Source: an uncultured delta proteobacterium (GTDB taxonomy: Bacteria > Desulfobacterota > Desulfobacteria > Desulfobacterales > SG8-13). From it: a stretch of DNA of 64,000 nucleotides. Position numbers and translations under genes: made by a program. The DNA is taken from NCBI GenBank assembly GCA_963848135.1, contig CAWKCK010000005.1:248001-312000 (forward strand), in the 5' to 3' direction. Below are positions 20,347 through 57,380 of the stretch, piece by piece (within the stretch, counting starts at the first letter, position 1; each line of letters starts with the position of its first letter). Under the pieces are notes generated by a model, which ran no database searches, was not told where the DNA came from, and was given only the letters and a program-made list of their open reading frames with translations.

Positions 20347-20658
20347 CTAACCGGGGATGGATACAGGCGCGGCTTGACCGATTTCTTCCATGGTCTCTTC
20401 GTATTTGCTGCGCATGTCAACGTTACCCTTGTCGATTTCGCTTTTCATCGGGCTCCAGTCGGAAGGACACTCAACTTTCAGTTGTTCGAGCCGCCCGGAT
20501 AATTCTTCGACAATCATATGAAGATCTTCTATCTTCGGCATGATTTTCTCCCTTTCAGAAGTACCAAGCTTGTCGAATTTTCGCCAGGCATCATAAATTT
20601 TTGCCTTCCACGCGGTCAATTCTATTTCCATACTTGAACAAAAATCTTTAACGTCCAT
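20347..20658 (-). CDS. Conserved hypothetical helical protein
   Basis: 103 aa, AGGAGG RBS, motifs ELTAWKAKIYD and ECPSDWSP. Confidence 0.75.
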   Translation of the reverse strand: MDVKDFCSSMEIELTAWKAKIYDAWRKFDKLGTSEREKIMPKIEDLHMIVEELSGRLEQLKVECPSDWSPMKSEIDKGNVDMRSKYEETMEEIGQAAPVSIPG

Positions 20659-21210: not shown

Positions 21211-21498
21211 CTAAGAGTTGTTATTCATTCCGTGGATGTCCAGGAAGTTTGACCATTCATCACTACTGATCATACCATCATTATCTTCATCGATCAGATC
21301 GTATCCTCCGCGTAAATTCTTCAATTGGACGGCAATGAATTCTTCGAAGGATAATGAACCGTCCTCATTGGCGTCCATCTCAGTCATATCCCATGACGAC
21401 ATCATACTGCCATGACCGTAATGATTATAACCGGCGAAGGCCACTGAAGTTATCAGTAAAGCAGAAAGCAGTACAGCGATGTTTATTGTGGTTTTCAT
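21211..21498 (-). CDS. Secreted EF-hand protein
   Basis: Signal peptide; two EF-hand loops DANEDGSLSFEE and DEDNDGMISSDE. Confidence 0.85.
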   Translation of the reverse strand: MKTTINIAVLLSALLITSVAFAGYNHYGHGSMMSSWDMTEMDANEDGSLSFEEFIAVQLKNLRGGYDLIDEDNDGMISSDEWSNFLDIHGMNNNS

Positions 21499-21854: not shown

Positions 21855-22787
21855 TTAATGTAATGCCTCAAGCTCGAGCCTGAACTCATCCGCATTTGCA
21901 ATGAACTTGACGCCGGTTGACTTGATCCTTTTTTTAAGAACGAATGTACCGTATCCGCCAACAAAAACCCTCGCGTATTTGGCGCAATAATTTTTGACCT
22001 TCCGCACTTCGCGGATGACCAATGCGTCATCTATCCTGTGTCCGATACTCAGAGCTATCGCTTTAGAATTTGTTTTTTGAGCTGCAGCCGCGATTTCTTC
22101 TGCGGGAAGATTCGGACCAAAGTACAGCGGCCGCCACCCGGATTCTGCTGCCATTAAGGCGACAGCCAGAGCGCCGGTTTCATGCCACTGTCCCACGGGC
22201 GCGGCAACTATGAGTCGGGGCGCAGACTCTGCCAGAAACACTGCCCGCAGCATCTCGAGCAATAGGGAACGTGTAACAAGTGACGCCATGCGTTCATGGA
22301 TGATTTTCAAATCGCCCGATGCCCACAGTTCTCCTACCTTAGTTAATAAAGGTTTAACCACAGAGTGCAAGAATTTGGACCGGGATAATCCCACCGCGGC
22401 TTGCTCCAGTACACTTTCGAGGCCGCCCTGATCCAGTCTGCGTATGCGTTCGAGGGCAACGAAAATTATTTCCTCTATATCACCATCTCCTCGACCTCCA
22501 AATTTTGCAGAAATCGGCTCAGTGTTTAACGATAGGGCTCTGTCGTTGAGACTGGCCAGTTGTTCATCTTTCATCGTCGCGACTTGTGAAATAGAATGAC
22601 CGGATTGGACAGCAGCCTTCAGAAGCTGCAAACGACGAATATCGTCATAAGAATAACACCGTCGGTTTGATTCCGAACGACCAGGACACACGGCCGAATA
22701 CCGTTGTTCCCAAGACCGCAGGATGTGCGGTTTTAGGCCGGTTATTTTGGCAGCAAAACGGATAGCATACTGTTCTTTTTCTTTCAT
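21855..22787 (-). CDS. MerR-family B12-binding regulator (CarH/LitR-like), copy 1
   Basis: RSWEQRY MerR HTH, W-x9-ER, GQWHETG B12-binding motif, YFGPNLP, ALSI. Confidence 0.88.
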   Translation of the reverse strand: MKEKEQYAIRFAAKITGLKPHILRSWEQRYSAVCPGRSESNRRCYSYDDIRRLQLLKAAVQSGHSISQVATMKDEQLASLNDRALSLNTEPISAKFGGRGDGDIEEIIFVALERIRRLDQGGLESVLEQAAVGLSRSKFLHSVVKPLLTKVGELWASGDLKIIHERMASLVTRSLLLEMLRAVFLAESAPRLIVAAPVGQWHETGALAVALMAAESGWRPLYFGPNLPAEEIAAAAQKTNSKAIALSIGHRIDDALVIREVRKVKNYCAKYARVFVGGYGTFVLKKRIKSTGVKFIANADEFRLELEALH

Positions 22788-22794
22788 GAGCGGG

Positions 22795-22834
22795 AATATA
22801 GGATATAAATTTGACATTGTCAACGTTATGTTTA
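22795..22834 (-). promoter_or_regulatory. sigma70 promoter of CarH-like copy 1 with TAAACA-N5-TTGACA repeat
   Basis: TTGACA-17bp-TATATT-7bp-ATG; TnnACA repeats 11 bp apart; TTGACATTGTCAA palindrome at 22811-22823. Confidence 0.65.
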
Positions 22835-22947
22835 AATTGGATTTAATTTAATTTAAATTTTAATTAATTTTATCATCATCAAAAAGACATTTATTGAACA
22901 TTAAGTGACTTGCCGCTCACCTTTTAACCGAGTGACAGGAGGAAATA

Positions 22948-25461
22948 ATGAAGACGAAACCAGAAATGACAAGCGAAAAAGGCCCCGCCGGAGTCAGAAG
23001 TGATATAGGAACCGGCTTGAATGACCTTTACATTTTACCCATTCGTAACATGGTAGCGTTTCCTCATCTCAGACTACCCATTGTCGTCACAGCTCAATCG
23101 GTGGACATCTACGGTGATGCCCTCAGCAAGGAAGGGTTAATCGGTTTAGTGGCATTAAAAGATGAAAGCGTTGATGACCCCATGCCCGAGCATGTGTTCG
23201 ATACAGGGACGATTGCTCAGGTCCTGCATTCAAAAAAATCGCCAGACGGCACGATGATGTTGGTGGTCAATGGCCAGAGTCGATTCAGGGTTTTGGATTG
23301 GTTGTCCGAATCTCCTCCGCTGCGGGCCCGGGTGACCGCGGCCCCCGAGGTCATTGAGGCCGACCTGGAGCAGGATGCGTTACTGCGACATGTCCGTCAG
23401 TTAGCGCAATCCGTTATTTCCTTGTCACCTCAAATTCCGGATGAAATTTCAGAGGTTTTGGAGCAACTTACAGACCCCCTGCAATTGGTATATGTACTGG
23501 CGCTTAACGTAACATCGGATGTGACATGGCGGCAGAACGTTTTGGAAATGGATAGCACCAAGGAAAAGCTCAGAGCCATTGCATCCTTCCTGACGCGGGA
23601 GAAGGAGGTGCTGGCCATTGGTGACCAAATTCAAACCGAAGCCCGCGAGAGTATAGACAAATCGCAGCGTCAATACTATCTGCGTCAGCAGCTCAAGGCC
23701 ATCCAAAAGGAGCTAGGTGAGACTGATGAGCAAGCTACAGAGGCCGATCTATATACCGATCGGATAGAAAATTCGGAAATGACGGATGAAGCCCGCCAGC
23801 AGGCCAGACGAGAACTGGAGCGTTTTTCCCAAATGTCACCGCAGTCTCCTGAACATTCGCTCGTAAAGACCTATTTGGACTGGCTCCTGGAGTTGCCTTG
23901 GGAAAACACGAGTGATGAATCAAGCGACATAACCAAAGCAAGCGGCATCCTGGACGCTGACCATTATGGCCTTAGTGACGTAAAGGAACGTCTGATTGAA
24001 TTTCTGGCGGTGCGTGAATTGGCAAAAAAGCGAAAAGTCAGCGGCCATGATAAGAACTTATCCGATACGGCATCGGGGGTTATTCTTTGTTTGGCCGGCC
24101 CCCCGGGTGTTGGCAAGACAAGCCTGGGACGGAGCGTGGCACTTGCTTTGGGCCGCAGCTTCACACGCATGAGCTTAGGAGGTATGCGAGATGAGGCTGA
24201 AATCCGTGGCCATCGACGAACTTACATCGGAGCGATGCCCGGCCGCATCATTCAGGCCATCAAGCGTGCCGGAACGCGCAATCCGGTATTTATGCTCGAT
24301 GAAATTGACAAGGTGGGTCAAGATTGGCGCGGCAATCCGAGCAGTGCACTTCTGGAGGTGTTGGATCCGGCCCAAAACAATACGTTCCGCGATCATTACC
24401 TGGATGTCGATTTTGATCTGAGCCAGGTCATATTCATTGCAACGGCCAACCAACTCGGCACCATTCCGCCGCCACTTCGCGACAGAATGGAAATCATTCA
24501 AATAGACGGTTATACCGAACTCGAGAAAGTACAGATCGCTAAACGGCACCTCATTCCCCGTCAGCTAAAGTCTCATAGTCTGAAAGAAGATGAGGTGACC
24601 TTCATGGATGATGCTGTGAGCAAGATCGTTCGGGACTACACGCGCGAGGCTGGCGTTCGGAACCTGGAACGCCAGATAGCCGCCGTGTGTCGAAAAGGAA
24701 TCGTGAAGCTTACCGGAAATGGATGGTCTCATGTTGTCATCACCCCAGAGCTTGTCCGTGAGTACCTGAGAAAGGAAATGTTCGAATCCGAACGCGCCGA
24801 ACCCATTGAAATCCCGGGGATCGCCAACGGTCTCGCCGTAACACCGGTAGGCGGCGAAATTCTGACCATTGAGGCCACGCGCATGTCCGGCAAGGGCAGA
24901 CTCACGCTGACCGGACAGCTGGGGGACGTCATGAAGGAAAGCGCCCAGATTGCACTCAGCTACGTGCGATCACAGGCGCCTGTTTTGCGGATCGATTCGA
25001 CAATATTCGATAGTACGGACGTTCACCTGCATGTGCCGGCCGGAGCTCTGCCCAAAGACGGCCCATCTGCCGGTGTTGCCATGGTGTCGGCGCTGGTCAG
25101 CTTGTTCAGTAACCAAGCTGTCAAAAGCCAGGTGGGAATCACCGGGGAGATCACCCTCCGTGGCCGCGTCCTGCCCGTCGGTGGAATCAAGATGAAAGTG
25201 CTGGCTGCACACCGGGCCGGCTTAACGACAGTGATCCTGCCCAAGCGAAACGAGCGTGATTTGGACGACATTCCTGATGAGGTTCGTCAGGCCATGCACT
25301 TTGTATTGGTCGATCACATTGACGAGGCCATGGCAACCGCCTTTGAACAGGGTCCTGGCGGCCACCTCGACATGCATTGTGGATCCATCGATTGTTTTAC
25401 GAACGACGCGTCCCTGGTACATGCCAACTGCCAGAGCGCAGGCCCGGGGGTTGTTCAGTGA
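22948..25461 (+). CDS. lon: ATP-dependent Lon protease
   Basis: GPPGVGKTS, RGHRRTYIGAMPG, PKDGPSAG catalytic Ser motif. Confidence 0.97.
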   Translation: MKTKPEMTSEKGPAGVRSDIGTGLNDLYILPIRNMVAFPHLRLPIVVTAQSVDIYGDALSKEGLIGLVALKDESVDDPMPEHVFDTGTIAQVLHSKKSPDGTMMLVVNGQSRFRVLDWLSESPPLRARVTAAPEVIEADLEQDALLRHVRQLAQSVISLSPQIPDEISEVLEQLTDPLQLVYVLALNVTSDVTWRQNVLEMDSTKEKLRAIASFLTREKEVLAIGDQIQTEARESIDKSQRQYYLRQQLKAIQKELGETDEQATEADLYTDRIENSEMTDEARQQARRELERFSQMSPQSPEHSLVKTYLDWLLELPWENTSDESSDITKASGILDADHYGLSDVKERLIEFLAVRELAKKRKVSGHDKNLSDTASGVILCLAGPPGVGKTSLGRSVALALGRSFTRMSLGGMRDEAEIRGHRRTYIGAMPGRIIQAIKRAGTRNPVFMLDEIDKVGQDWRGNPSSALLEVLDPAQNNTFRDHYLDVDFDLSQVIFIATANQLGTIPPPLRDRMEIIQIDGYTELEKVQIAKRHLIPRQLKSHSLKEDEVTFMDDAVSKIVRDYTREAGVRNLERQIAAVCRKGIVKLTGNGWSHVVITPELVREYLRKEMFESERAEPIEIPGIANGLAVTPVGGEILTIEATRMSGKGRLTLTGQLGDVMKESAQIALSYVRSQAPVLRIDSTIFDSTDVHLHVPAGALPKDGPSAGVAMVSALVSLFSNQAVKSQVGITGEITLRGRVLPVGGIKMKVLAAHRAGLTTVILPKRNERDLDDIPDEVRQAMHFVLVDHIDEAMATAFEQGPGGHLDMHCGSIDCFTNDASLVHANCQSAGPGVVQ

Positions 25462-25570
25462 AAAATATGATATCGCCTCTTTGACCAAAATTAACGAATG
25501 GGTACCGGATGCGCCTGTGCCATTAAGCCTGGAAGAACGGGGCAAATCGTCCACCCATGTGAGGATTAAA

Positions 25571-27433
25571 ATGAAAAAACAGCATAAATTTTCAATATGG
25601 TACGCAATTATAGGGGTCTGGTTGGTTCTTTTGCTTCATAATATGATCGCTTCGGCTTTGGTTGTTAAGACAATACCTTACAGCGAATTTAACAGCCTGG
25701 TTAAAGACGGCCGTGTATCTGAGATCTCCATTTCTGCGAATCAGATTCAAGGTCGAATGTTTGCGCCGGATGGCGACACCGAGAAAGGCACTCTGTTTAG
25801 AACGGTGAGGGTTGACCCGGATATATCCGCCTTTTTGGAGGAAAACAATATCCCTTTTGCTGGCCAAATCGAGTCGAACTTTCTGGGTAATCTGGTTTCG
25901 TGGGTCTTCCCCGTGTTTCTGTTCTTCGGCATTTGGTTTTTCATGATGCGTCGCTTCCAGCAACAGTCAGGGGTCATGTCCCTTGGAAAAAACAAGGCCA
26001 AGATTTATGTGGAAGATGACGTAAAGGCAAGTTTCAGCGATGCCGCCGGTGTGGATGAGGCCAAGGAAGAGCTCAATGAAGTCATCGAGTTTCTGAAAGA
26101 ACCGGAGCGTTTTACCAGGGTGGGCGGCCAGATACCGCGCGGCATTTTACTCGTTGGGCCTCCAGGGACCGGAAAAACGCTGCTGGCCAAAGCGGTTGCC
26201 GGTGAAAGCAATGTCCCCTTCTTCAGTCTGAGTGGCTCGGAGTTTGTTGAAATGTTTGTCGGTCTTGGCGCAGCGCGGGTTCGTGACCTCTTCAAACAGG
26301 CGAAAGAAAAGGCACCCTGTATCATCTTTATCGACGAACTTGATGCTTTGGGGAAAGCCCGCGGTTTCGCCGCCGCAGGAGGACATGACGAGAGGGAACA
26401 GACCTTGAACCAGCTTCTGGTGGAGTTGGACGGTTTCGATCCTAATGTGGGCGTAATCCTAATGGCTGCCACCAATCGCCCGGAGATCCTTGACCCGGCC
26501 CTGCTGAGGCCCGGACGGTTTGACCGCCAGGTGCTGGTGGACAGGCCGGACAAGATTGGCCGCAAAGACATTCTGCGGATTTATCTGGATAAAGTCGAAA
26601 CTGTCGAAGAGATCGACGTTGATAAGGTCGCTGCGATGACCCCCGGCATGGTAGGCGCCGACTTGGCAAACCTGGTCAACGAGGCGGCTCTGCTCGCTGT
26701 GAGGCGCGACAAGAAAGGTATCAGCCTGTCAGAAATAGAGGAAGCCGTCGAGCGGGTTGTCGCCGGACTTGAAAAAAAGAACCGTTTGATCAATCCCGAG
26801 GAAAAACAGATCGTTGCCCATCACGAATTGGGACATGCTCTTGTGGCAATGGCACTGCCTGGAACCGATCCAGTTCAGAAAATATCCATCATACCCAGAG
26901 GGATAGCAGCGTTAGGGTATACCATGCAGGTGCCGACCGAAGACCGTTTTCTGATGCGCAAAACGGAACTGCAAAATCGCATCGCCACACTACTTGGCGG
27001 TCGTGCTGCAGAAGAAATAATTTTCAACGATGTCTCCACGGGCGCCCATAATGATCTTTCCCGGGCCACCGACATCGCACGCAGTATGATCAAAGAATAC
27101 GGTATGAGCCGTCGCCTTGGCAGAGTCTATTTTGCGCACAGAAATCAAGGGCAATTCCTCTATGCAAATCAGGAGTTCGGTGGCGAATACAGCGAAGCAA
27201 CGGCCAGGATGATAGATGAAGAGGTAAAGCGCATCATCGATGAGCAATATGAGGTGGCCCTGGGCATCTTGAAAGCGAACCGGAAGCTCCTGGAGACGGT
27301 GGCAGTAACTCTCATCGATAAAGAAATTATCGATGGCGAAGGACTTTATGCGCTTTCTCAAGCCGTTGAAAAAAACATATCCTCTATAGTGGGCAAAGAT
27401 AGGATGGCAGAGGATGATTCTCTCGCAGCCTGA
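25571..27433 (+). CDS. ftsH: ATP-dependent zinc metalloprotease FtsH
   Basis: Two TM helices, [26 protein letters not shown] zinc motif; ATG at 25571 after GAGG. Confidence 0.96.
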
Positions 27434-27870
27434 ATTCTCTGCCTGAGTCGATAGAGGGCACCGGCGACACGTCGTTTTTGGTATCGGTTTACAGGCTTGC
27501 AACGTCCAATATGCTTAAGACGTTAGAATTGTAAGCGTTAACAGGGTGCCACGGATGCAAGGCGTCGGGCGCGCAAACATACTTTTGACCGTTAAGCGCC
27601 CGAAAAAAACAGATACGGTGCCATACGAATGCTTACCGCCGTTGTAACTTCTTCGAAAGATGTGTCTTCTTGAGGGTAAAACGGGGAAAGAGTAATCGAT
27701 GCCCATTAAACATGAAGAATCATCTGCAAAACCCTTTTATAGGCGACTCATACCGAGGGTCGCCCATTTTATCGGATTCGGTGTCGATGGTCCTGCAGTG
27801 GTCGCAGTGACGGCAAATTTCGTGCTCAGAAAGTCGTTTCTGGTATTAAAGGCTATTTAGGTCCTGCCAT

Positions 27871-27904
27871 TTGACATTACGAAATATTGTCTATTTTTTG
27901 TCTA
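27871..27904 (+). promoter_or_regulatory. TTGACA box followed by TGTCTA-N5-TGTCTA direct repeat (putative CarH-type operator)
   Basis: Perfect hexamer repeat at 27888 and 27899 (11-bp spacing). Confidence 0.5.
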
Positions 27905-27940
27905 TATATGCAGTAAGTATCGCCACAAATAAAAGGAGCG

Positions 27941-28072
27941 ATGATGAAAAAAATATTGATAAAATTGATTGCCATGGGATCTCCGCTGGCTATGGGACTC
28001 GAGCACGTTGTCACCAGAGGACGCGAGAAGGAGACCGAACAATTTTTCGGTGTTTCACGCAAGCTCAACTGA
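27941..28072 (+). CDS. Small hypothetical protein (43 aa)
   Basis: AAGGAG RBS, MMKKILIKLIAMGSPLAMGLEHVVTRGREKETEQFFGVSRKLN. Confidence 0.45.
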   Translation: MMKKILIKLIAMGSPLAMGLEHVVTRGREKETEQFFGVSRKLN

Positions 28073-28236
28073 ACTCGCAAGGCGAAATCATTTCACTGAA
28101 AATACAGCGAGTAGAGCCGGCAGTAACAATGTAAGCCGCCGAAGTTACCGATTGTGCCGACAGGCACAACGACGAGCGGGGAAAATCCGATTTCCGGCGA
28201 TTCCGCCGCCTGTCGCAACACATCAGGAGGTATTGT

Positions 28237-28671
28237 ATGCCATCCTTTGTTATCGCTGAAAAATGCGATGGATGCAAAGGTGGGGACAAGACCGCATGTA
28301 TGTACATTTGTCCGAATGACCTTATGGTCTTGGACCCCAACGAGATGAAGGCTTATAACCAAGAGCCGGATCAATGTTGGGAGTGCTTTTCATGCGTCAA
28401 GATTTGCCCCACCCAGGCAATTGAGGTGAGAGGTTATGCGGACTTTGTGCCCCTTGGAAGCAGCATCATGCCGATGCTGGGAACCGAGGACGTTATGTGG
28501 ACCTGTAAGTTTAGAAACGGGGTCATAAAGCGTTTCAAGTTTCCCATTCGTACCACAGCCGAGGGGGCAGCAAATGCCTATGTGGACCTTAAGGGGAAGG
28601 ATCTGGAAAACGGCCTCCTCAGCACGGAAGAAGCTGACGGAAAGTCTATTCCTCGCCCCCAAACGGTCTGA
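28237..28671 (+). CDS. aprB: Adenylylsulfate (APS) reductase beta subunit, stand-alone copy
   Basis: MPSFV..EKCDGCKGGDKTACMYICPNDLM...CWECFSCVKICP...RFKFPIRTT; GGAGG RBS. Confidence 0.95.
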   Translation: MPSFVIAEKCDGCKGGDKTACMYICPNDLMVLDPNEMKAYNQEPDQCWECFSCVKICPTQAIEVRGYADFVPLGSSIMPMLGTEDVMWTCKFRNGVIKRFKFPIRTTAEGAANAYVDLKGKDLENGLLSTEEADGKSIPRPQTV

Positions 28672-28710
28672 TATCTCAGTTGCCGTTTGAAATTAACCTC
28701 CTAATTTAAC

Positions 28711-28750
28711 CGGCGGAGCGATGCGCTTCGGCGCTCTGCTCCGCCTTTTT
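28711..28750 (+). terminator. Intrinsic terminator after aprB
   Basis: GGCGGAGC...GCTCCGCC hairpin followed by TTTTT. Confidence 0.8.
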
Positions 28751-29051
28751 GTTCATAGGTACCAGATTCAGAAACATTGACGCATCCGCCAGGCGAGCGG
28801 TACAGATCATAAAACCGGGAACAGTCGTCATACCCGCGCAGTGAACCCGCCCTCAACGATTTCGCTTCCACATCCAAATTGTCGCGACAAAAGATGCAAT
28901 CAGGCAAAGCAACAAAAACCAAATTTCAGTCATTTTTCCTCCTTTTAAAATGGGGTCCTTTCAGACCTGCAGATATTTAGAAAATTTCGCGTCAGTGTCA
29001 AGACATTCTGATGATAGGATGAAAATCTTTGACATTTTGCCTCTCGAATAA

Positions 29052-29085
29052 TTGACAAACTAGACGAATGTCTTATATTTGTCTA
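29052..29085 (+). promoter_or_regulatory. sigma70 promoter with TGTCTT-N5-TGTCTA repeat flanking the -10 box
   Basis: TTGACA-16bp-TATATT; hexamers at 29069 and 29080. Confidence 0.5.
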
Positions 29086-29155
29086 TTATTTGAGGATGAG
29101 GTTCAAACATAAACAGTGCACTTGAGCGCGTTAAGTAAACACTTAGGAGGTTGGC

Positions 29156-29668
29156 ATGGATAACCTAGACCATAATAAAGAAAAATTTGCAGATGCGATG
29201 TCGAATCTATTGAGAGATGATCTCGGTATGAGCATTGAGCTGTTGAACGAAATTATCGATACAGAACCCGGCGATAAACTGGCCTTGCTGGCTCGAGGGG
29301 CGATTTACATGAAGAGAGGCGAAACGGATAATTCCATCAGCGATTTCAGTCGTGCCATAGAATTAGATGGCAACTACGCAAAAGCCTATCACCTGAGAGG
29401 TCTCGCCCGGGAAACGGCCGGCGACGATGACAGCGCTTTGAAAGACTTTGACCAGGCGATCGATATCGATCCGGAATACGGCGCAGCCTACTACAGCCGA
29501 GCCACGTTGTTCACCAAATTGGGCCAGGAAGATTCTGCAGTAGAAGATATGCGAATAATTTCTCACCTGACCAATCGCAACATCGAGCATTTCGCCAATG
29601 AAAACAACGTATGGCGCTCCCGGCATTTGCAAGTGGAAAATATATCGGAAAACGAAATGAACCGCTGA
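29156..29668 (+). CDS. Tetratricopeptide repeat protein
   Basis: Repeated AY..RG / A..DF..AI.LD TPR units; AGGAGG RBS. Confidence 0.88.
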   Translation: MDNLDHNKEKFADAMSNLLRDDLGMSIELLNEIIDTEPGDKLALLARGAIYMKRGETDNSISDFSRAIELDGNYAKAYHLRGLARETAGDDDSALKDFDQAIDIDPEYGAAYYSRATLFTKLGQEDSAVEDMRIISHLTNRNIEHFANENNVWRSRHLQVENISENEMNR

Positions 29669-29710
29669 TCGTTGAATCGTCGGCTGAATTAAGAAAGGAG
29701 GAACCCTCTT

Positions 29711-29881
29711 ATGGATTTTAACTCGAGTGAAATTATTACGCTAAACTTGATCAAGCAGGCGGTCGAATCGGAAGGATGTCACCTTACCGATGTAGATCTT
29801 GAAAATTTACAGGTCAAAGTCGATGGTCCTGATGAAGTTGTTGGCGACTGCGCCAGAGCCGTAGCGGAAATTCTTCAATAG
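29711..29881 (+). CDS. Small hypothetical protein (56 aa), missed by the ORF track
   Basis: AAGGAGG RBS; MDFNSSEIITLNLIKQAVESEGCHLTDVDLENLQVKVDGPDEVVGDCARAVAEILQ. Confidence 0.7.
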   Translation: MDFNSSEIITLNLIKQAVESEGCHLTDVDLENLQVKVDGPDEVVGDCARAVAEILQ

Positions 29882-37115: not shown

Positions 37116-37925
37116 TCAAAATATTATACGGTTCTCACCGCAAACCAATATCAATTCGGATTCCTTACCAGTACACGCAAGGGTCATATTGAGGCTTTTT
37201 CCCATCTCGGCGGCAAGAGCGGTCGGGCGTGACTTACTGATCATAATCGGCAAATGCGCTCTGGCGGTTTTTTGGACCAATTCAAAACTTATCCTTGAAG
37301 ATAGAATCACGATGGCGGCCTCGTTCAGCTTCTTATTCATAAAGACTTTTCCTATTGCCTTATCAAGCGCATTATGCCGTCCAACATCCTCGGCAAAAGA
37401 AATAATCTTCAATTGATGATCAAATATCATAGCCGCGTGTGAGCCCCTTGTTTTCTGATAGTATTTCTGGTTTTCGGGAAGCTTGTTGATGCAATCGAAA
37501 ATGCGGTCGATTTCAACCCGAAAGCCACTATCGACCGGAGTTAAGATCTGATAAAGATCCTTAACCATCTCCTTGCCGCAAATACCGCAACTGGTCTGGC
37601 TGACAAAGCCCCTTCTCTCGAGTAGATCATGAATTTTTTCACGCCTTTCGGATGCGAGCCTGATATCGATGACATTGGGATCCAGATCTTCACAATAACC
37701 TATCGTAACAAAATCATCTGGAGAGTCCGCAATACCCTCCCCTAGACAAAATCCTGCCGCGTGAAACAATTCCTCCCCGGGTGTTCGCATTACCACGGAA
37801 TAAGGCTTTCCATCGATACGGATCAAAAGGGGCTCCTCGCCAATCAATTCGTGAGAGCTGGTCCGGCAAACCCCTCCTTCACACCGAATCACCTGATAAG
37901 ATCCTGTATCCGTGCCTTCATTCAT
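37116..37925 (-). CDS. fdhD: Formate dehydrogenase accessory sulfurtransferase
   Basis: EEPL, MRTPG, SCGICG, EDVGRHNALDKAIG, SRISFELVQK. Confidence 0.93.
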   Translation of the reverse strand: MNEGTDTGSYQVIRCEGGVCRTSSHELIGEEPLLIRIDGKPYSVVMRTPGEELFHAAGFCLGEGIADSPDDFVTIGYCEDLDPNVIDIRLASERREKIHDLLERRGFVSQTSCGICGKEMVKDLYQILTPVDSGFRVEIDRIFDCINKLPENQKYYQKTRGSHAAMIFDHQLKIISFAEDVGRHNALDKAIGKVFMNKKLNEAAIVILSSRISFELVQKTARAHLPIMISKSRPTALAAEMGKSLNMTLACTGKESELILVCGENRIIF

Positions 37926-38042
37926 TTCTTATGGTTCCATTAACACCCTGTTAAACGTGAGCTGTGCCGGTTTTAACTGATTGTCGTCATATGTATGGTA
38001 TGCAATCGAATAAACAAATTGCGTTGGCCTTCCCCCAAAGAA

Positions 38043-38534
38043 CTAGTCCAAATCTAGCTTCGAACTGCACTGATTACATTTTACTGCTCCCCGGAAGACT
38101 TTATTGCCGCATTGCGGGCAAATGTATCGGGCCTCTTCATCTTGGACCCAGTTTTCCGTGCCGACTTCGCGCCAATGGGGAATAGCCCGCAAAATAACCT
38201 TTTTACCGACAGCCATTGGAAAGTTATCGATATACTGACAGGGAAAATCGTCGCATTGATGGCATCCGGTATAGCCCTTCTCTTTTGTACAGGCTCTGAT
38301 ATCACAGTGCTGACAGTGTATAAAAGGTTCGCCAGATAGGCAGCCACGGCAGCGGATACCTTCTATTGTCAGATGCTCACTATTCGGAAGAACACCCTTA
38401 CCGGAAACTTTTCCCATGTAAAGTCCCAGCAACCGCTCCTTGAATTTATGATTATTATCGCGATGGGCGATATAAATGGCGCAAACTCCGCAATAAAGAC
38501 CACAAGGAGAGACAAAATCTGGATTTATTTTCAC
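38043..38534 (-). CDS. DUF3795 Cys-rich protein
   Basis: PCGLYCGVC, CRGC, C.IRAC, CHQCDDFPC, C-terminal CPQC/CNQC. Confidence 0.85.
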   Translation of the reverse strand: MKINPDFVSPCGLYCGVCAIYIAHRDNNHKFKERLLGLYMGKVSGKGVLPNSEHLTIEGIRCRGCLSGEPFIHCQHCDIRACTKEKGYTGCHQCDDFPCQYIDNFPMAVGKKVILRAIPHWREVGTENWVQDEEARYICPQCGNKVFRGAVKCNQCSSKLDLD

Positions 38535-38615
38535 AATTTTAATCCTCCGTGATTTTTAATTCTCTTAAATTGCGACAATTGAACGAACGAGACCTTCTGA
38601 TTTCCTCCCCAATAT

Positions 38616-39230
38616 TTATTCCACTGACGGCGGTTCGGAAGAAAGTGCGGGGGCAATGAGCGATTTGGTTAAAACGTAAGCTGCTTGCAGGGCCTCTGTG
38701 GGGCACAGCGGAAAACATTCCTTGCAGTCCCAGCATTCTTTAGAAGCAATTTCCGGGATGAAACTGATCTCTTTCCTTATTCCCCTGTCGACAAATCCAA
38801 CGGCATTCTTTTTCTTGATCTCGGCGCAGTATCTCACACATAGACCACAATGAATGCAAAATGAAGCCTCTTTTTCAAAGCGGTCTTTGTCTGCGCCATA
38901 CTCTTGACCCAATTCCTGCAGCTCAGGAGAATCAGGGGCATGTGCCAGCAGAAGTTCCAAGATCATTTTACGAATTTTATCTATCGTCGCGGATCTGGTT
39001 CTGACCACCAAATTTTCTGCTACCGGATAAATGCAAGAAACAACGCGCTTGGTCCAACCGTTAACCTCTACTTCTACAATGCAAATCCGGCAACCCCCAA
39101 AAGGTTCCAAATCCTTGTGGTGACATAATGTGGGTATCGATATGCCTGCATTTTGGGCGGCCTCCAGGACGGTCATCCCTTCGTCTGCAGGGACTTCTTT
39201 TCCATCAATCTGTAGAAGGATCTCACTCAT
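38616..39230 (-). CDS. bamI: Class II benzoyl-CoA reductase subunit I (NuoG N-terminal-like Fe-S)
   Basis: IPTLCHH, GGCRICIVE, CIHCGLCVRYC, CWDCKECFPLCP; position in bam cluster. Confidence 0.8.
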   Translation of the reverse strand: MSEILLQIDGKEVPADEGMTVLEAAQNAGISIPTLCHHKDLEPFGGCRICIVEVEVNGWTKRVVSCIYPVAENLVVRTRSATIDKIRKMILELLLAHAPDSPELQELGQEYGADKDRFEKEASFCIHCGLCVRYCAEIKKKNAVGFVDRGIRKEISFIPEIASKECWDCKECFPLCPTEALQAAYVLTKSLIAPALSSEPPSVE

Positions 39231-41154
39231 TTGCTTTGCTCTTTCTGGTTATGATTCTTTCTTCTTCAGGAATAGGAGATGGAACAGGTTCTCCTGAAAT
39301 CTTCGTCACCGCACTAAATCGAGAGGGACAAACTTCAAAGCAGGTTCCGCACTTTGTGCATTTCTCCTGGTCAATGACATGGATCTTCTTCTTGCCACCG
39401 TCAACCGCACCGGCCGGGCACTTCTTTTTGCAAATCATACAGGCCTGGCACTTAGCCGGATCAACATAAAACGCTATCAGTTGCTTACAGGATAAAGCCG
39501 GGCATCTCTTCTCCAGGATATGCGCCTCATACTCTTCTCTGAAATAGCGCACCGTACTGAGAAACGGATTCGGGGCACTCGTCCCTAACGCGCAAAGCGA
39601 GGCCTCCTTTGCCACTTCGGACAGCTCTTCCAGGAGCTTGATGTCGCCCTCTTTTCCCTTTCCTTCGGTGATTTTCGTGAGAATCTTTAGCATCTGTCCG
39701 AGGCCTTCACGACACGGTACACATTTACCGCAGGATTCATCCGTGAGAAAGTCAATGAAGTACCTGGCGACATCAACCATGCAGGTATCTTCATCCATTA
39801 CAATCATCCCACCTGACCCCATCATAGAACCGGCCTCGGTGAGTTCATCAAAACCAACTTCCAAATCTAACAAATCACCTGGGATACATCCGCCGGACGG
39901 CCCCCCGGTTTGAACCGCTTTGAACTTCTTGCCTCCGGGAATCCCACCACCAATTTTGTAAATAATATCTTTCAGGCTCATGCCCATGGGTACTTCCACA
40001 AGGCCGGTATTGGTTATTTTACCGACCAGGGAAAAAATCTTCGTGCCCTTGCTTCCGTCCGTTCCAAATTGGGTGAACCAATCAGCGCCTTTATTGATGA
40101 TAAGCGGCACATTGGCCCAGGTCTCAACATTATTTAAAACGCTGGGCATCCCCCAGAGGCCTTTGATGTTGGAGCGGATATACTTTGGCCGGGGCTCCCC
40201 AACCCTGCCTTCCAATGCCGTCATCAGGGCCGTCGATTCACCACAGACAAAAGCGCCGGCGCCCCGATGCACTTGAACAGTGAAATCAAAACCTGATCCG
40301 AGGATGTTTTTTCCCAGTAAACCATGCTCCTCAGCCATCTTGATAGCGATGTTAACATTTTCCACGGCCAGGGGGTATTCCTGTCGAACGTAAATATAGC
40401 CCTCGTGGGAGCCGATGGCATAAGCGCCGATAGTCAACCCCTCGAGGATGGAGTGAGGATTGCCCTCGAGAAGGCTCCGGTCCATATAAGCCCCGGGGTC
40501 ACCCTCATCGGCATTGACGATCACGTATTTTGTCTCTTCCGGAGCATTGCGGGTCCCCTCCCATTTTCTCCCCGCGGGAAAGCCGCCGCCGCCTCTCCCT
40601 CTCAGGTTGGATTTTTTGACTTCCTCCAATACCTGCTCCGCGGACATCCCTGAAAGTGCTTTGGCTAAAGCGGAATAACCGCCAATGGCCAAGTAATCAT
40701 CGATGCTCTTGGGGTCAATACTGCCGTTAGAGCCGAAAACAAGTCGCTCCTGGTTCTTGTAGAAAGGAATTTCAGATTCATGAATGATCTTTTCATTGGT
40801 ATCGGGGTCGCTATAGAGCAAACGCTCGATGACCTTCTTCTCTTTTATCGTTTTAGATACAATTTCTGGAACATCTTCGGGCGCGATTTGAAAATAGCAG
40901 ATTTCCTCAGGGTGAATGACAATAATGGGACCCCGTTCACAAAAGCCGTGGCAACCGGTCTTCCTGATATCGACCTTATCCACTAAGCCCTGTTTTTTTA
41001 CCTCTTCTTCAATGCTTTCAGCGACCTTTCCACTGCCCGTAGCATGGCAAGCGGATCCTGAACAAAGCGTAATACAGGGTTTCTCCGGATCTCTTTTCGA
41101 TAAGATATTCTTCCTGAATTTTTCAAGATCAGCTGGTGAATCTATCCGCGGCAT
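39223..41154 (-). CDS. bamH: Class II benzoyl-CoA reductase subunit H (NuoF-like, FMN/NADH)
   Basis: LRGRGGGGFP, NADEGDPG, GAGAFVCGE, ESCGKCVPCREG, C-terminal 2[4Fe-4S]. Confidence 0.85.
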   Translation of the reverse strand: MPRIDSPADLEKFRKNILSKRDPEKPCITLCSGSACHATGSGKVAESIEEEVKKQGLVDKVDIRKTGCHGFCERGPIIVIHPEEICYFQIAPEDVPEIVSKTIKEKKVIERLLYSDPDTNEKIIHESEIPFYKNQERLVFGSNGSIDPKSIDDYLAIGGYSALAKALSGMSAEQVLEEVKKSNLRGRGGGGFPAGRKWEGTRNAPEETKYVIVNADEGDPGAYMDRSLLEGNPHSILEGLTIGAYAIGSHEGYIYVRQEYPLAVENVNIAIKMAEEHGLLGKNILGSGFDFTVQVHRGAGAFVCGESTALMTALEGRVGEPRPKYIRSNIKGLWGMPSVLNNVETWANVPLIINKGADWFTQFGTDGSKGTKIFSLVGKITNTGLVEVPMGMSLKDIIYKIGGGIPGGKKFKAVQTGGPSGGCIPGDLLDLEVGFDELTEAGSMMGSGGMIVMDEDTCMVDVARYFIDFLTDESCGKCVPCREGLGQMLKILTKITEGKGKEGDIKLLEELSEVAKEASLCALGTSAPNPFLSTVRYFREEYEAHILEKRCPALSCKQLIAFYVDPAKCQACMICKKKCPAGAVDGGKKKIHVIDQEKCTKCGTCFEVCPSRFSAVTKISGEPVPSPIPEEERIITRKSKANE

Positions 41155-41163
41155 AATTTTATC

Positions 41164-41640
41164 CTACTCGTAATTTTTTAACACATCTGCTGTCGCGCCC
41201 GGCGCCATCTTTCCGTGCGTCTTCCCATCAATTTCCATCACCGGTCCTAAAGCACAGCAGCCAAGGCAATTCACTGTCTCCAGGCTGAATTTCAAATCCA
41301 GGTCTGTTTCGCCAGGTTTAATACCGGTCACATCTTGCACCGTGTCCAGGATGCGCGTTGCACCGCGAACATGGCAGGCAGTACCCACACAAAGATGAAT
41401 TTCATGACGCCCTTTCGGAACGAGGCTAAATGCCTTATAAAAGGTCGCGATATGCTGTATCTGGGTTAAGGGAACCTGCAATTTCTCGCTAACCCTCTCT
41501 AAGGCCTTCTTAGGCAGCCAATGATTTTCACTCTGGATCTCCAGCAATACCTGTATCAGTGAACTGGCTTCGCTCTGATGATTGTCGATAATCTGATCAA
41601 TTCTGTCATTCTCCATATCCGCTATCCCAATCTTCTTCAT
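41164..41640 (-). CDS. bamG: Class II benzoyl-CoA reductase subunit G (NuoE-like 2Fe-2S)
   Basis: ATFY, CVGTACHVRG, VNCLGCCALGP. Confidence 0.85.
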   Translation of the reverse strand: MKKIGIADMENDRIDQIIDNHQSEASSLIQVLLEIQSENHWLPKKALERVSEKLQVPLTQIQHIATFYKAFSLVPKGRHEIHLCVGTACHVRGATRILDTVQDVTGIKPGETDLDLKFSLETVNCLGCCALGPVMEIDGKTHGKMAPGATADVLKNYE

Positions 41641-41669
41641 TTTCCCAAGTTACAGCACGCTCTTTCGCT

Positions 41670-42437
41670 TCAGGCCAAAGCGAAGCGTTTCAGATTTTCA
41701 TCGTATCTGACCAATCCGTGCCTTGATGAGCTGTTCATGTGCCGCGATACTTCGGACGGGTTCAGACCTAAAACCTCAGATATTTCTCCAGTTGAAAGGG
41801 GTTTTTCACGCAAGAGTAACATGATTTGACTGATTGCCAATTTATCAATGACCAATGCATTAATTAACCGATTGACCTCATCGCTGCTGAAAAATTCTTC
41901 ATACGCATCTTCCGATTTGACAGGTACCCTCAACCGTTCCCTTTCCACCAACTTTAGGTAAGGAATTAAATTCGTAACCGCCTCGAGATTGACTTTTAAT
42001 CCTTTCGCGTCGATTCCTTCGCTTTTTCCCAGAGGCCCTATTCCGTCCACCTTTTTGCAAAAAGCGTTTATCATTTCGGCAAGTAGGATGCCATCACCGG
42101 AGGACAAAAACTCGATCGATAACCTTTCCGGGTTCAACCCGATGTGTTGCATTATCTTTCTGCACAGAAGCACATTGCTCAGGGCATCGTAATTCCCATG
42201 GGTAATATAATTGCACTCATTCAGACGGCAACCGCCAATAAAAACCCCGTCTATTCCATTTGAGAAGGCTCTGAGCACAAATTCCAGGTCGACTCTACCG
42301 GAACACATGACGCGGATAAGCCTGATGTCAGTTGCATATTGTAGTCTGGAAACTCCAGCCATGTCAGCAGCACCGTAGGCTCACCAATGGCATACAAAAC
42401 CCAGTACTTTCGGTTTAAATGGAAGACCTGTTGTCAT
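41670..42437 (-). CDS. bamF: Class II benzoyl-CoA reductase subunit F (MvhD-like selenoprotein)
   Basis: MTTGLPFKPKVLGFVCHW-U-AYGAADMAG with TGA at 42381-42383; RVMCSGRV, GC..NECNY; GGAG RBS before 42437. Confidence 0.9.
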
Positions 42438-42456
42438 TCGTGCTCAACTCCTTAAA

Positions 42457-45400
42457 TTATTGGTTGATCGCTTCCTCTTGAAAAGCCGTGTCAATCTGAC
42501 TCAAGAGCTCTTCATCGGTAAAGTGTTTTAAAAAAACCGCATTTGTGGGGCACTTTGCGCAACAGAGTCCGTCACCTTTACACAGAACGGGATTGACCCA
42601 GGCTTTTCTGCCCTGGGGTGTCTCGCGGAACTCAATCGCCCCATACGTGCAGGCGGTAATACAAGCCCCACACGATACACAATCGTTCTCTTTAACCTCG
42701 CAAACAGAACCGGAGACGGTGACGGTATTATTTGAGAGAAGGGTTAACGCGCGGCTGGCAGCCCCATAAGCCTGGTTGATCGCCTCGGGAATATGCTTGG
42801 GATAGTGAGCTGTTCCACACAGAAAAACGCCGTCCGCGGCAAAATCGACAGGTCGTAATTTGACATGGGCTTCTTTGAAAAAATTATCCGCTCCCAACGA
42901 AACCTTGAAAAATTGAGATATTTTTTTGTTGCCCGCAGAGGGAATAACGGCGGCAGCCAGAACGAGGTAATCGGCATCTATCGCCAGCTTCTGACCGAGA
43001 ATGGGATCGGTTGCGGCAACCCTTAAAACAGGCCGACCCTCTACCGTAGCCATTTCTATGCTGGGTTTATCTCCAGGCTCATATTGAATGAACTTTACAT
43101 CTTTATCAGACGCTTGCCGGTAATAATCCTCAATAAACCCATAGGTTCTTATATCCCGAAATAGAATGTAGATATCCATCTCGGGGTTTAACTCTTTCAG
43201 TTTCAGTGCGTTCTTTATCGAATGACTGCAACACACCCGGCTACAGTAATTTCTGTCTTCATTTCTGCAGCCGATGCATTGGATCATCACGAGACTCTGG
43301 GCGTTTATGACCTTGTCATCCGCTTTGGCGATTTTCTCCCCCAACTCTATATTGGTCATTACCCTGTCGTCATCACCGTACATGTATTCCGTGGGTTTAT
43401 ATTCATCGGCACCTACAGCGATGACGGTTGCACCATGTTTTATCTCAGTGCCCCCTCGTTCAGAGGTTACTTTGGTTAAGAAATTTCCAACATAACCGGT
43501 GGCCTCCCGGATGACGGCATCCGTATATACGTGTATTAACTGGTGCTGATAAACCTTGCGCTCCAGATCATGCAGATAGGCCTGAACATCCATCCCATCA
43601 AGCGTGGAATAGATTCTTCTCGCCATTCCTCCCAGTTCTGTATCCTTTTCCAGCAGGTACACCTCATGGCCCTGTTTGGCGATGGAGAGAGCACAATTCA
43701 TGCCGGCGATACCGCCACCAACCACCAACGCCGCCTTGTTTACCGGCAGATCGATCTCCTGTAATGGCTCCAGACAGCAGGCCCGGGCGACCGACATCCG
43801 CGTGATATCCTTTGCCTTATCGGTGGCATTTTCCTTTTCCCGCGCGTGGACCCAGGAACAATGTTCCCTGATATTTGCCATTTCAAAGAAATACGGGTTG
43901 ATTCCGGCCTCCCGAAGCGTATCCCGAAATAACGGTTCAAGTGTCCGCGGAGAACAAGCAGCAACAACGACCCGATTGAGTCCCTTTTCCCGAATCTTCT
44001 CCGTTATTGACTCGGCAGAGTCAGTCGCACATGAAAACAGTTGTTCTGTGGCGTAAACGACGTTATCCAGGGTCTTGGAATATTCAACGACGGAAGGCAC
44101 ATCGACCACCCTTCCGATATTTGCACCGCAATGACACACAAAAACACCGACCCTGGGTTCTTCTTCCGCGACATCCTTTTCCGATGGATATACCCTTTCT
44201 TTGGACAGCTTCCCGCGCCGGTAGTCAAGGAATTCACCGCATTGGGCCCCAGCGCCGCTGGCGGTAATTACCGACTCGGGGATATCCAAAGGACCCTGGA
44301 AGGCACCGCTGACAAAAATTCCCGGACGAGAAGTCTCAATGGGGTTCGCAGATTTGGTTTTGCAGAATCCGTGTGAATTAAGCATGATACCATACATATC
44401 AGCCAATTTTTCCGCTTCAGCCGGAGGGTTCAGCCCTACGGATAATACCACCAGATCGAACTCCTCTTCCTTCACGCCGTCCGCGCTCGTTGCGTATCGT
44501 ATGGTAACATTGCCGCTTTCCGGGATTTCTTTTCCTATGGACACGTAGCTTCTGATAAATCGAACCCCGTCAAGGTTCTCTGCTCTCTGATAGAATAGTT
44601 CGAAATCCTTGCCATAGGAACGAATATCGTTATGGAATACCGTACACTCGGCCGCGGCATCATGATCTTTTGTCAAAATCACCTGCTTCTGAGTATAGGT
44701 GCAGCATACGGCTGAACAATAGCTGTTATCCCCGGGGGTAACCCGCCGGGAACCGACGCATTGAATCCAGGCGATTTTATGGGGATGCTTCTTATCGGAA
44801 GGGCGCAATATCTCGCCTTCATGCGGCCCTGTGGCGCACAGAAGCCTTTCGAAATCAAGGCTGGTGACTACGTTCTCAATCTTACCGTAGCCATAGTCGC
44901 CCCTCAACTTTGGGTCAAAAGGCTCATATCCCGGAGACAGTACAATCGCTGCGACTTTTACTTCGACCTTCTCCGGTTCCTGCTGAAAATCTATCGCCTC
45001 GTTCTTGCAGACACCTTCACAAATACGGCATTTTTTCTGTTCTAGATAAATGCAGCTTTGTTCTATGTAGGTGACAAGGGGAACGGCCTGAGAAAAGTAT
45101 ATATGGATGGCTTTATTCGCCGATAAATCCTGATTGTATGGATCAGGGACCTCTACCGGGCAGTATTCTACACAGGTAGCACAGCCTGTACATCTGTCTT
45201 CAATGACGTATCTGGGTTTTTTATTCAATGTGACCTTGAAGTCTCCTGCTTCACCTTCGACAGCGTCAACTTCAGTATAGGTCAAAACCTCTATATTGGG
45301 ATGCCGGCCGACCTCGACCAGTTTGGGCGAGAGTATTCACATCGAACAGTCATTGGTGGGATAGGTCTTGTCCAGCTGGGCCATATGCCCGCCAATGGCA

Positions 45401-45567
45401 GGTGCTTTCTCAACCAGATAAACCTTATAACCCGAACCGGCAAGATCGAGAGACGCCTGAATGCCGCTGATCCCTCCACCGACAACCATCACATCTCCAA
45501 AATTGCTGGCTGCAAAACTTTTCCGAAGTTGTTGAACTTTTTCCTCTCGCACTGGTTCTTTTTCCAC
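42457..45567 (-). CDS. bamE: Class II benzoyl-CoA reductase subunit E (HdrA-like selenoprotein)
   Basis: [25 protein letters not shown] with TGA at 45337-45339 joins two in-frame ORFs; two FAD-binding GGG motifs, many Fe-S motifs; about 1036 aa. Confidence 0.92.
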
Positions 45568-45649
45568 TTTCTATCACCTCATTCGGTTTCGTAGGTCAGC
45601 TTGCGCGCTAATTCCAAATTGCGAAGAATATGCTTATAAAATTCGCAGG

Positions 45650-56271: not shown

Positions 56272-56299
56272 AATCTAAACAATATTTAGACAATGTCAA
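56272..56299 (-). promoter_or_regulatory. Promoter of the divergent gene with TAAACA-N5-TAGACA repeat
   Basis: Minus TTGACA-16bp-TAGATT; plus-strand TnnACA at 56276 and 56287. Confidence 0.55.
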
Positions 56300-56386: not shown

Positions 56387-56426
56387 TAAACAAATACTTG
56401 ACATTCATAACAAGTCAGACTATTTT
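56387..56426 (+). promoter_or_regulatory. sigma70 promoter of CarH-like copy 2 with TAAACA-N5-TTGACA repeat
   Basis: TTGACA-17bp-TATTTT-6bp-ATG; same layout as the copy 1 promoter. Confidence 0.65.
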
Positions 56427-56432: not shown

Positions 56433-57380
56433 ATGGAAGATAGAGGACTATATACGATCCGATTGGTTTCAGAACGCACAGGTTTGTCGCCGCATGTCAT
56501 TCGCGCTTGGGAAAAACGTTATCAGGCGGTTGTTCCCCAACGGTCGTCGACAAATCGTCGGCTTTATTTCGATCATGACGTTCAGCGATTGCAGATCCTC
56601 AAGCAAATGACGGATGCCGGTTATACGATATCACGTGTTGCAAAATTGAATTCGGACGAACTTCGGGAATTGGCCCAAAAAGAAGCTTCGAATTTTCCTC
56701 GAGCGTCGATGAGCAGAGGCCGATCAAAGCGACAACCCGCAGCAGACAAATACTACAATGACGGTTTGACTGCCGTAGTCAACCTCGATCCGAACGGCTT
56801 GGAGAGTACCCTCGATCAAGCAGCCATCGAACTGACGCGACTAACACTCTTGAGAGACGTTGTCATTCCGTTGTTCGAAGAGATTGGTTATTTATGGCGA
56901 AACGGTAACTTGAAAATCATCAATGAACATATGGCCACTTCGGTGACACGAACCTTCTTACTGAATTTATTGAGAGCGACGGAGATATCCGACTCAGCAC
57001 CGAAAATCGTCATCGCCACAACCGTGGGGCAATGGCATGACATGGGCGCACTAACCGTGGCTTTGACGGCTGCGGAATACGGCTGGCACCCGCTCTATTT
57101 CGGCCCCAATTTACCCGCTGAGGAAATTGCAGCAGCGGTTAAACTTAGCAGCGCCAGTGCCGTGGCTATCAGCATCACCCATCTGTTGGACCAGCACCCA
57201 CTATCAGGCGAACTGCGCAAGCTGCGCCGGTATGTGGGCAACGGTGTGGCTTTATTTATAGGGGGACAATCTGCCGTTGATAACGCGCATATTGCAGATG
57301 AGGTCAATGCAAAATACATTGCAAATTTCGAACAGTTGATCGAAGAACTCAATTCGGTCCTTACCGATAACGTTGCGTGA
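56433..57380 (+). CDS. MerR-family B12-binding regulator (CarH/LitR-like), copy 2
   Basis: RAWEKRY, W-x9-EH, GQWHDMG, YFGPNLPAEEIA, AISI. Confidence 0.9.
   Translation: MEDRGLYTIRLVSERTGLSPHVIRAWEKRYQAVVPQRSSTNRRLYFDHDVQRLQILKQMTDAGYTISRVAKLNSDELRELAQKEASNFPRASMSRGRSKRQPAADKYYNDGLTAVVNLDPNGLESTLDQAAIELTRLTLLRDVVIPLFEEIGYLWRNGNLKIINEHMATSVTRTFLLNLLRATEISDSAPKIVIATTVGQWHDMGALTVALTAAEYGWHPLYFGPNLPAEEIAAAVKLSSASAVAISITHLLDQHPLSGELRKLRRYVGNGVALFIGGQSAVDNAHIADEVNAKYIANFEQLIEELNSVLTDNVA

Follow-up and report, generated by a model that had tools for sequence, protein, structure and literature searches.

In aerobes, sensors of the CarH type are described as regulators of genes for carotenoids and DNA repair. 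CarH occupies three or four 11-bp repeats (nnnnTnnACAn) over the -35 and -10 boxes, and RxWERRY is the recognition-helix motif of CarH and CarA (PMC9304148). Dissociation of CarH from Thermus thermophilus requires His132 and O2 (PMC10442372). CtMerR is light-responsive although it has an arginine at the His132 position, and the signature GxxW/EH/GxxH/GxxxP was proposed and validated for B12 photoreceptors (PMC11796333). (What we attribute to a paper, here and below, refers to the part of its text that was available.) Here we describe two CarH-like genes, R1 and R2, in a 64,000-nucleotide stretch of DNA from an uncultured delta proteobacterium (the window; positions 248001-312000 of contig C5 in genome G000, which is 6.03 Mb). 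Coordinates are window positions unless a contig is named. Sequence comparisons strongly support a conserved CarH-type regulon over lon-ftsH, a stand-alone copy of aprB, which encodes the Fe-S subunit of adenosine 5'-phosphosulfate (APS) reductase, and a TPR (tetratricopeptide repeat) gene with an open reading frame (ORF) of 56 amino acids (aa). It seems probable to us that a pair of CarH-like repressors holds these genes off in the dark, that light, probably together with O2, releases them, and that the cell would then degrade damaged protein and supply fresh AprB.

R1 (21855..22787, minus strand; 310 aa; likely leaderless) and R2 (56433..57380, plus strand; 315 aa) are the two full CarH-like genes of G000, which also has four full-length lon genes, three ftsH genes, and two aprB genes. 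The accessory Lon protease of the window (22948..25461, plus strand) has an intact catalytic Ser motif, and the accessory FtsH (25571..27433, plus strand) has an intact HExxH. An earlier note, made from the sequence of the window, had called a B12-binding MerR regulator, Lon, FtsH, AprB, and a TPR protein, and profile matches bear out these gene calls; MerR_1 matches both R1 and R2, as does a B12-binding domain. The two regulators are 42% identical. A four-helix bundle and a Rossmann B12 domain are seen in the predicted model of R2 (pLDDT 89) and, for R1, by sequence. The best structural match of the R2 model is T. thermophilus CarH (PDB 5C8D; Foldseek E = 5e-19; TM 0.82-0.86 for the B12 domain, by target length), and CtMerR (PDB 8JBS) was matched in the B12 domain only (E = 6e-9). 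Neither protein reaches the cut-off of 400 for the NCBIfam CarH equivalog (NF052513): R1 scores 92 bits and R2 scores 112 bits.

We compared these regulators with 401 genomes of the same order, 36 of which contain full-length regulators. Outside the order, 1 of the 190 genomes in a phylum-wide sample had a match, which was weak and lay in a much longer ORF. Our set of 51 regulator loci came from 37 relatives; L072 was dropped as a duplicate from the same contig as G239, and two other regulator matches (G245:C45 and G406:C243) were left out. Counts for signatures and for the tree cover 53 regulators. The recognition helix, RxWExRY in 51 of the 53, resembles the RxWERRY of CarH and CarA. The W-x9-EH adenosyl pocket is present in R2, and across the family its W is found in 53/53, its E in 49/53, and its H in 51/53. 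The full GxxW/EH/GxxH/GxxxP signature is present in 30 of 53 loci, including R2.

The earlier note had reported pairs of TnnACA-like hexamers spaced 11 bp apart, including two pairs at R2 (56276/56287 and 56387/56398), and all twelve of its hexamers are where it placed them. Perfect TnnACA-N5-TnnACA pairs occur in the window at 22818, 27888, 56276, and 56387 and nowhere else; these are four of the eight matches in the 6.03 Mb genome to the tighter pattern T[AT][AG]ACA-N5-T[AT][AG]ACA. Two more pairs, 29069/29080 and 22884/22895, are imperfect. The difference from background that the earlier note counted on is found in the conserved upstream positions in relatives and not in genome-wide numbers: the loose pattern is not enriched across the genome (134 at spacing 11 versus 103-200 at spacings 6-21), so the significance of the repeats comes from where they lie and how well they are conserved. 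When G000 was scored with a matrix derived from 68 sites of relatives, and none of its own, 22818 came first, 27888 third, 56276 fourth, 29069/29080 sixth, and 56387 seventh. Second place went to a triple repeat 160 kb from the window, with a fasciclin gene on one side and a divergent M23-like gene on the other (contig C5:436415-437918, beside a clostripain-like gene). Homologs of the fasciclin and M23-like genes flank regulators in other genomes, and this is likely a further member of the regulon outside the window. Another matrix match, C17:143433, was discarded for its position in a low-complexity stretch (C17:142300-143600) with a long T run and a plus strand almost without C, which may be an assembly or contamination artefact.

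The repeats coincide with predicted promoters. Operator A (22818..22845) comprises repeats at 22818 and 22829 and a degenerate third repeat at 22840, which is complete in most aligned relatives. It overlaps the -35 box of R1 and the spacer and -10 box of lon: the predicted R1 promoter is TTGACA-17-TATATT (22795..22823, minus strand), with the last repeat as its -35 box, and the predicted lon promoter is TTGACA-16-TAAATT (22811..22838, plus strand). Operator B (TGTCTA-N5-TGTCTA, 27888..27904) is in the promoter region of the stand-alone aprB unit. As the earlier note had seen, the repeats of operator C (29069, imperfect, and 29080) flank the -10 box of the TPR promoter, for which we predict TTGACA-16-TATATT (29052..29085, plus strand). 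Operator D (56276..56292) precedes a divergent 239-aa ORF (55546-56265), and operator E (56387..56426, plus strand) ends in the -35 box of the R2 promoter, which is predicted to be leaderless. The lon-proximal pair (22884..22900, plus strand), which had also been proposed as a site, is not supported: it scores below 4 bits by the matrix and is outside the conserved footprint in nine aligned regulator-lon spacers, which is TGTCAA-N5-TGTTTA-N5-TGTTTA beside the regulator.

Of the 31 regulators listed, 30 have TTGACA as their last repeat and -35 box, with a -10-like box 17 nt further on and the ATG 34-36 nt from the -35 box. For R1, the most likely start site is the ATG at 22787, because the TTG at 22823 belongs to the -35 box; for R2 it is 56433. 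Because the repeats overlap promoter boxes, and given the precedent of CarH, repression with leaderless autoregulation is very probable.

To quantify conservation, we counted repeats at exactly 11 bp within 200 bp upstream of each gene. Such pairs precede 34 of 50 regulators, 16 of 16 lon genes, 13 of 22 TPR genes, and 5 of 8 neighbouring aprB genes. Control spacings of 7-16 gave at most 2 pairs, and 100 dinucleotide shuffles gave means of 0.50 (regulators), 0.27 (lon), 0.09 (TPR), and 0.03 (aprB). These loci are kin, and the counts show conservation rather than independent trials. Among AT-rich tiles of G000, 15/1407 contain a pair. Inner genes of the operons rarely have one (1/13 for ftsH and 1/16 for the 56-aa ORF), and a 103-aa gene that recurs beside the regulators has none upstream in 8 loci; a gene for an EF-hand protein has pairs upstream in four loci. 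The sites stay with their genes despite rearranged gene order. In the 51 loci (which exclude the window), the neighbours are TPR (22), lon (16), the 56-aa ORF (15), ftsH (15), the 103-aa gene (8), the EF-hand gene (8), and intact aprB (7).

The stand-alone aprB (28237..28671, plus strand; 144 aa) has intact cluster cysteines and Trp48. Its product scores 195.6 bits against TIGR02060 (AprB; cut-off 135.65), with two sets of 4Fe-4S cysteines and the C-terminal domain, and is 89% identical to the product of the second aprB of G000, which is in the main aprBA-qmo operon on contig C3 (a sat/aprBA/qmo-like cluster). This cluster, together with the Atlas taxa of the TPR protein, points to a sulfate-reducing member of the Desulfobacterota. 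We surveyed aprB in 71 genomes. An intact aprB without an aprA was seen in 13 of the 39 genomes that have a regulator and in 1 of the other 32, and both counts may be low, as context was inspected for about 50 of the 78 matches. A tight pair is within 450 nt of 10 of the 14 intact stand-alone copies versus 0 of 31 copies in aprBA operons. Six of these ten copies were used in defining the pattern; the other four, from G000, G307, G368, and G406, were not. When the loose pattern is applied, a weak pair appears at one operon copy.

Stand-alone AprBs retain all of the cluster cysteines, Trp48, and the non-ferredoxin C-terminal part, which we take to wrap AprA. Stand-alone and operon genes of the same genome differ at 0.52-0.70 of four-fold sites, and the residue is changed in 5-14 of 132 codons. 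These substitutions mark the stand-alone gene as an old paralog that has been kept under purifying selection. Recent duplication was rejected for G000 and G255 (approximately unbiased (AU) test, p = 2e-5 and 4e-46), and a single origin of all 14 copies is compatible with the data (AU p = 0.51), which is no proof of it. Truncated aprB fragments at L038, L145, and L149 (in G003, G199, and G315; the G199 fragment is 5'-truncated) suggest repeated loss or decay of extra copies.

The gene has a leader (28150..28236, plus strand) in which two hairpins are predicted upstream of the ribosome-binding site. Related stand-alone copies share this leader; such leaders are specific to stand-alone aprB genes and fall into two or three sequence types, from few sequences. 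This leader might stabilise the mRNA or control translation. Rfam gave no match in 19000-60000, leader included. Near-identical contigs span the leader in three RNA libraries from two samples (28190-28682 with 15 differences, 28193-28311 with 0, and 28163-28457 with 4). They are a weak hint at expression, with a DNA origin still possible; the RNA runs contain at most 5% of words, and as these are contigs, genes cannot be ranked by expression. The earlier note had placed a small ORF in one unit with aprB. The 43-aa ORF (27941..28072, plus strand) is likely a remnant of a TPR-protein C-terminus instead of a gene. That protein is longer in G092, where its gene follows ftsH, and in G113, where its gene is near aprB.

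The tree of 53 regulators places R1 among proteins whose genes mostly diverge from lon-ftsH and the EF-hand gene. R2 falls with proteins from G003, G005, and G011 whose genes lie right beside TPR, the 56-aa ORF, and aprB (the G003 copy of aprB is a fragment). A dinB-like gene is downstream of the R2 relatives in G003 and G005, as it is after R2. Because its closest relatives sit by these genes, R2 rather than R1 is likely the partner of the aprB and TPR units, which are now 27 kb away. The two paralogs seem to divide the work, with the R1 group serving lon-ftsH and R2 relatives serving TPR, the 56-aa ORF, and aprB; cross-control between them is plausible because their operators look alike. So, of the earlier proposal that one sensor governs lon-ftsH, aprB, and TPR, the shared regulon stands and the single regulator probably does not. 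The TPR operon and R2 are separated by a cluster (37116-49398) of AFOR-, Hdr/CCG-, FlpD/ArsR-, and NuoEFG-like genes with fdhD; in relatives, the counterparts of the TPR operon and R2 are adjacent or close.

Fe-S and flavin proteins are sensitive to light and O2. In the dark, as the position of the repeats suggests, repressor loaded with adenosylcobalamin would cover the -35 and -10 boxes. Light, probably with O2, would break the Co-C bond and free the promoters; for this step we draw on knowledge of the family and on gene context. The accessory Lon and FtsH might then clear damaged proteins while the extra AprB takes the place of the Fe-S subunit in APS reductase, and the TPR protein and the two-Cys protein (the product of the 56-aa ORF) may assist. 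That the extra AprB is a replacement subunit has, we think, slightly less than an even chance. The complete scheme, a spare-part cycle for APS reductase under a B12 photoreceptor, with TPR and two-Cys helpers and with a branch of regulators in which Cys for His makes a new B12 (or haem) sensor, is a tentative idea that may well fail as a whole.

The genomic context favours light as the signal, and it ties the regulon to light-stress genes more closely than the earlier note could tell. Class II photolyase is encoded in 35 of the 36 genomes with regulators and in 128 of the 365 others. In G307, a triple repeat, a stand-alone aprB, and, 105 bp on, an 821-aa photolyase-FAD-oxidoreductase fusion follow each other on one strand, with the operator ~370 nt upstream; it could serve the divergent gene. 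In 5 of 20 loci (L254, L255, L256, L257, and L272), a sister FtsH (70-72% identical) is first in a gene run that includes the 103-aa gene and class II photolyase, which puts a protease inside a UV/light operon; rudS is present in 4 of these, and light operons of LitR are reported to include rudS (PMC11417400). These sister ftsH operons have no operator. G000 has genes for making and using adenosylcobalamin (three of the CobA/BtuR family and two of the methylmalonyl-CoA-mutase family). The stand-alone aprB of G092, which has no pair, is among DUF2177-, lipocalin-, and amine-oxidase-like genes, and genes for lipocalin, amine oxidase, DUF2177, and fasciclin each turn up at 4-7 loci. Such genes are linked to photo-oxidative stress.

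Several observations weigh against light, and some of them point to another signal. The CarH-type assignment of the earlier note suits R2, with its full signature, better than R1, which lacks the His of W-x9-EH (W-x9-ER, with Arg at His142). The two closest orthologs of R1 have EH, and R1 keeps the lower-ligand His; its function as a sensor may be weakened or altered. In the D/E-x-H-x2-G motif, R1 and R2 keep the His and Gly and have Gln for D/E, and the looser GxxH is present; Glu is found at that position in 0/53 regulators (Asp in one, otherwise Q or H), and His132 is also found in 0/53. In 13 of the 53 (L041, L094, L096, L099, and L103-L111), and in 18 of 150 wider representatives, the cobalt-binding lower His is replaced by Cys (a GQWC-type motif). 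The 13 are one side of a moderately supported branch (83/69), four of them have Gly for the pocket Glu, and 11 adjoin TPR or the 56-aa ORF; among aprB-adjacent regulators in relatives, 5 of 7 are of this type, which possibly uses a different cofactor or ligation. The link between photolyase and regulator is partly kinship, as photolyase is common in the same families. Both photolyase genes of G000 are broken: the photolyase-oxidoreductase fusion (C5:445584-447929) has many stops and frameshifts, and the class II gene behind rudS (C2:46240-47642) has one break. (Pfam FAD_binding_7 missed the class II photolyases of G000, a false negative.) Finally, no strong operator was found at the photolyase, cryB, or cfa clusters of G000. 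These departures would fit the same regulon responding to oxygen, redox, or corrinoid supply, with oxidative stress stripping or oxidising the cofactor (in the Cys group, cobalamin or haem bound by a thiolate). The regulated genes encode proteases and an Fe-S protein, G000 retains the regulon with its photolyases broken, and CarH requires O2 to complete its switch (PMC10442372). On the other side, the photoreceptor-specific W-x9-EH pocket is largely kept, the full signature is in more than half of the regulators, and photolyase genes are linked. We consider an oxygen, redox, or corrinoid signal fairly unlikely, and we think there is a good chance that light acting on adenosylcobalamin is the signal for R2-type proteins.

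Even in a regulon for light or stress, the stand-alone AprB might raise the AprB:AprA ratio or act as a two-cluster ferredoxin, for example for the photolyase-oxidoreductase fusion. That would suit the arrangement in G307, the 4 of 14 intact stand-alone copies that lack a pair, and the structured leader of the gene. Also, one stand-alone aprB is in G020, where no regulator was found, which does not sit well with control by these proteins. However, the whole protein is conserved like operon AprB, including the C-terminal part, which argues that stand-alone AprB still binds AprA; a role other than repair is a minority possibility that we take seriously. A more sceptical reading is that the repeats serve autoregulation only and that the other genes are mere neighbours in a mobile stress island. 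Indeed, 15 of the 16 lon sites are common to the divergent regulator and belong mostly to its own promoter, so control of lon is not separable from autoregulation, and the sister ftsH operons do without an operator. Yet separate pairs precede aprB and TPR even where the fetched locus has no regulator match (G406, G368, and G307) or, as in the window, the regulator is 27 kb off, which makes autoregulation alone very improbable. As for chance, AT-rich promoters with a TTGACA box could yield pairs, as TTGACA fits TnnACA and the loose pattern lacks genome-wide enrichment. But just 11 of 1333 AT-rich T[AT][AG]ACA hexamers in G000 have a partner at 11 bp, similar to other spacings, as opposed to 59-100% of target loci, and we give chance almost no weight.

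The TPR protein (29156..29668, plus strand; 170 aa) has a conserved C-terminal tail, and its family is wider than the regulator (82/401 genomes); some copies without a nearby regulator adjoin lipocalin and DUF2177 genes. The 56-aa protein (29711..29881, plus strand) is acidic, with a predicted alpha-beta-beta-alpha fold and two conserved Cys that are 24 residues apart, without CxxC. Pfam, Atlas, and fold searches gave no family for it, and against the HMA/copper-chaperone fold its best scores were Z 5.8 and Foldseek E = 0.12. Complex prediction for TPR, the 56-aa protein, and AprB scored 0.00 in two runs, which we count neither way. Beside R1 are the small EF-hand protein (21211..21498, minus strand), which has a signal-peptide-like N-terminus and recurs beside R1-type regulators, and the 103-aa protein (20347..20658, minus strand), which has a weak match, below the cut-off, to the sll1863 family; the 103-aa gene also recurs in ftsH-rudS-photolyase operons. 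A dispersed element of ~140 bp with inverted ends (27501..27645; 45 blastn hits in the genome) is outside the regulon, and a copy of it lies between the operator and the aprB leader in G005. Divergent from R2, 51847-56265 contains a chalcone-isomerase-like gene, two unknown ORFs, and a betaine-binding protein; homologs of the 239-aa ORF are beside regulators at four other loci. On contig C17, the region 151694-177721 has chalcone-isomerase-like, cfa-like, cytochrome bd, amine oxidase, and lipocalin genes and an intact cryB (C17:174338-175894). This large cluster resembles photo-oxidative stress genes; it has no strong operator and is likely under another regulator. The only SQS_PSY gene of G000 is in a hopanoid-type cluster.

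In the full-text literature, whose coverage leaves out most subscription papers, we found no report of this regulon. The available text of a survey of deltaproteobacterial regulons has no such signal and no MerR, ftsH, or direct repeat (PMC545781), and that of a preprint on the Desulfoluna genome does not mention a second aprB (10.1101/630186). If our interpretation is true, then a version of these sensors in strict anaerobes controls a dedicated copy of a core subunit of sulfate respiration, which would make AprB the weak part of the pathway under light and oxygen and would help explain the activity of sulfate reducers in lit, oxic surface sediments and mats. The system also offers material for tests: defined operators, a stand-alone aprB that its leader distinguishes as a marker, and His-to-Cys and His-to-Arg variants of a B12 photoreceptor that occur in nature.

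The closest relatives are CarH and the class I LitR proteins (from T. thermophilus (5C8D), Bacillus megaterium, and myxobacteria), which have the same MerR helix-turn-helix, four-helix bundle, and Rossmann B12 domain, and share W-x9-EH and the lower His with most members here. Tandem 11-bp TnnACA repeats over the -35 and -10 boxes are common to both (PMC9304148), the boxes here being predicted ones. In contrast to CarH, the regulators here are ~25% identical to it, far below the NCBIfam cut-off, with Q or H instead of D/E in front of the His, His132 missing throughout, one group with a Cys ligand, and usually 2-3 repeats; their targets are proteases, aprB, and unknown genes instead of carotenoid genes. 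CtMerR (8JBS) has the same GxxW/EH/GxxH/GxxxP signature and is likewise without His132, and such a regulon is not mentioned for it in the available text (PMC11796333). The regulons of class II LitR in Pseudomonas (phrB, ufaM, cryB, and rudS) have photolyase, rudS, and cfa-like genes that recur here too (PMC9758184, PMC11417400). Unlike the proteins here, class II LitR lacks a Rossmann B12 domain. For sulfate reduction itself, Rex-type control of sat and aprBA is known in Desulfovibrio. HcpR likewise regulates an APS reductase gene of this sulfate reducer at the level of transcription (PMC545781). The HcpR and Rex sites are palindromic and on the main operon, whereas here direct repeats are on a separate gene for the beta subunit and at 0/31 operon copies. 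In the D1/FtsH cycle of photosystem II, and with GrcA for pyruvate formate-lyase, a stress-induced copy of the fragile part of a core energy enzyme is supplied, together with proteases. The likeness is an analogy without homology. We regard the regulon as real, conserved, and apparently undescribed: the regulatory system is a known one, here in a variant whose target is unexpected.

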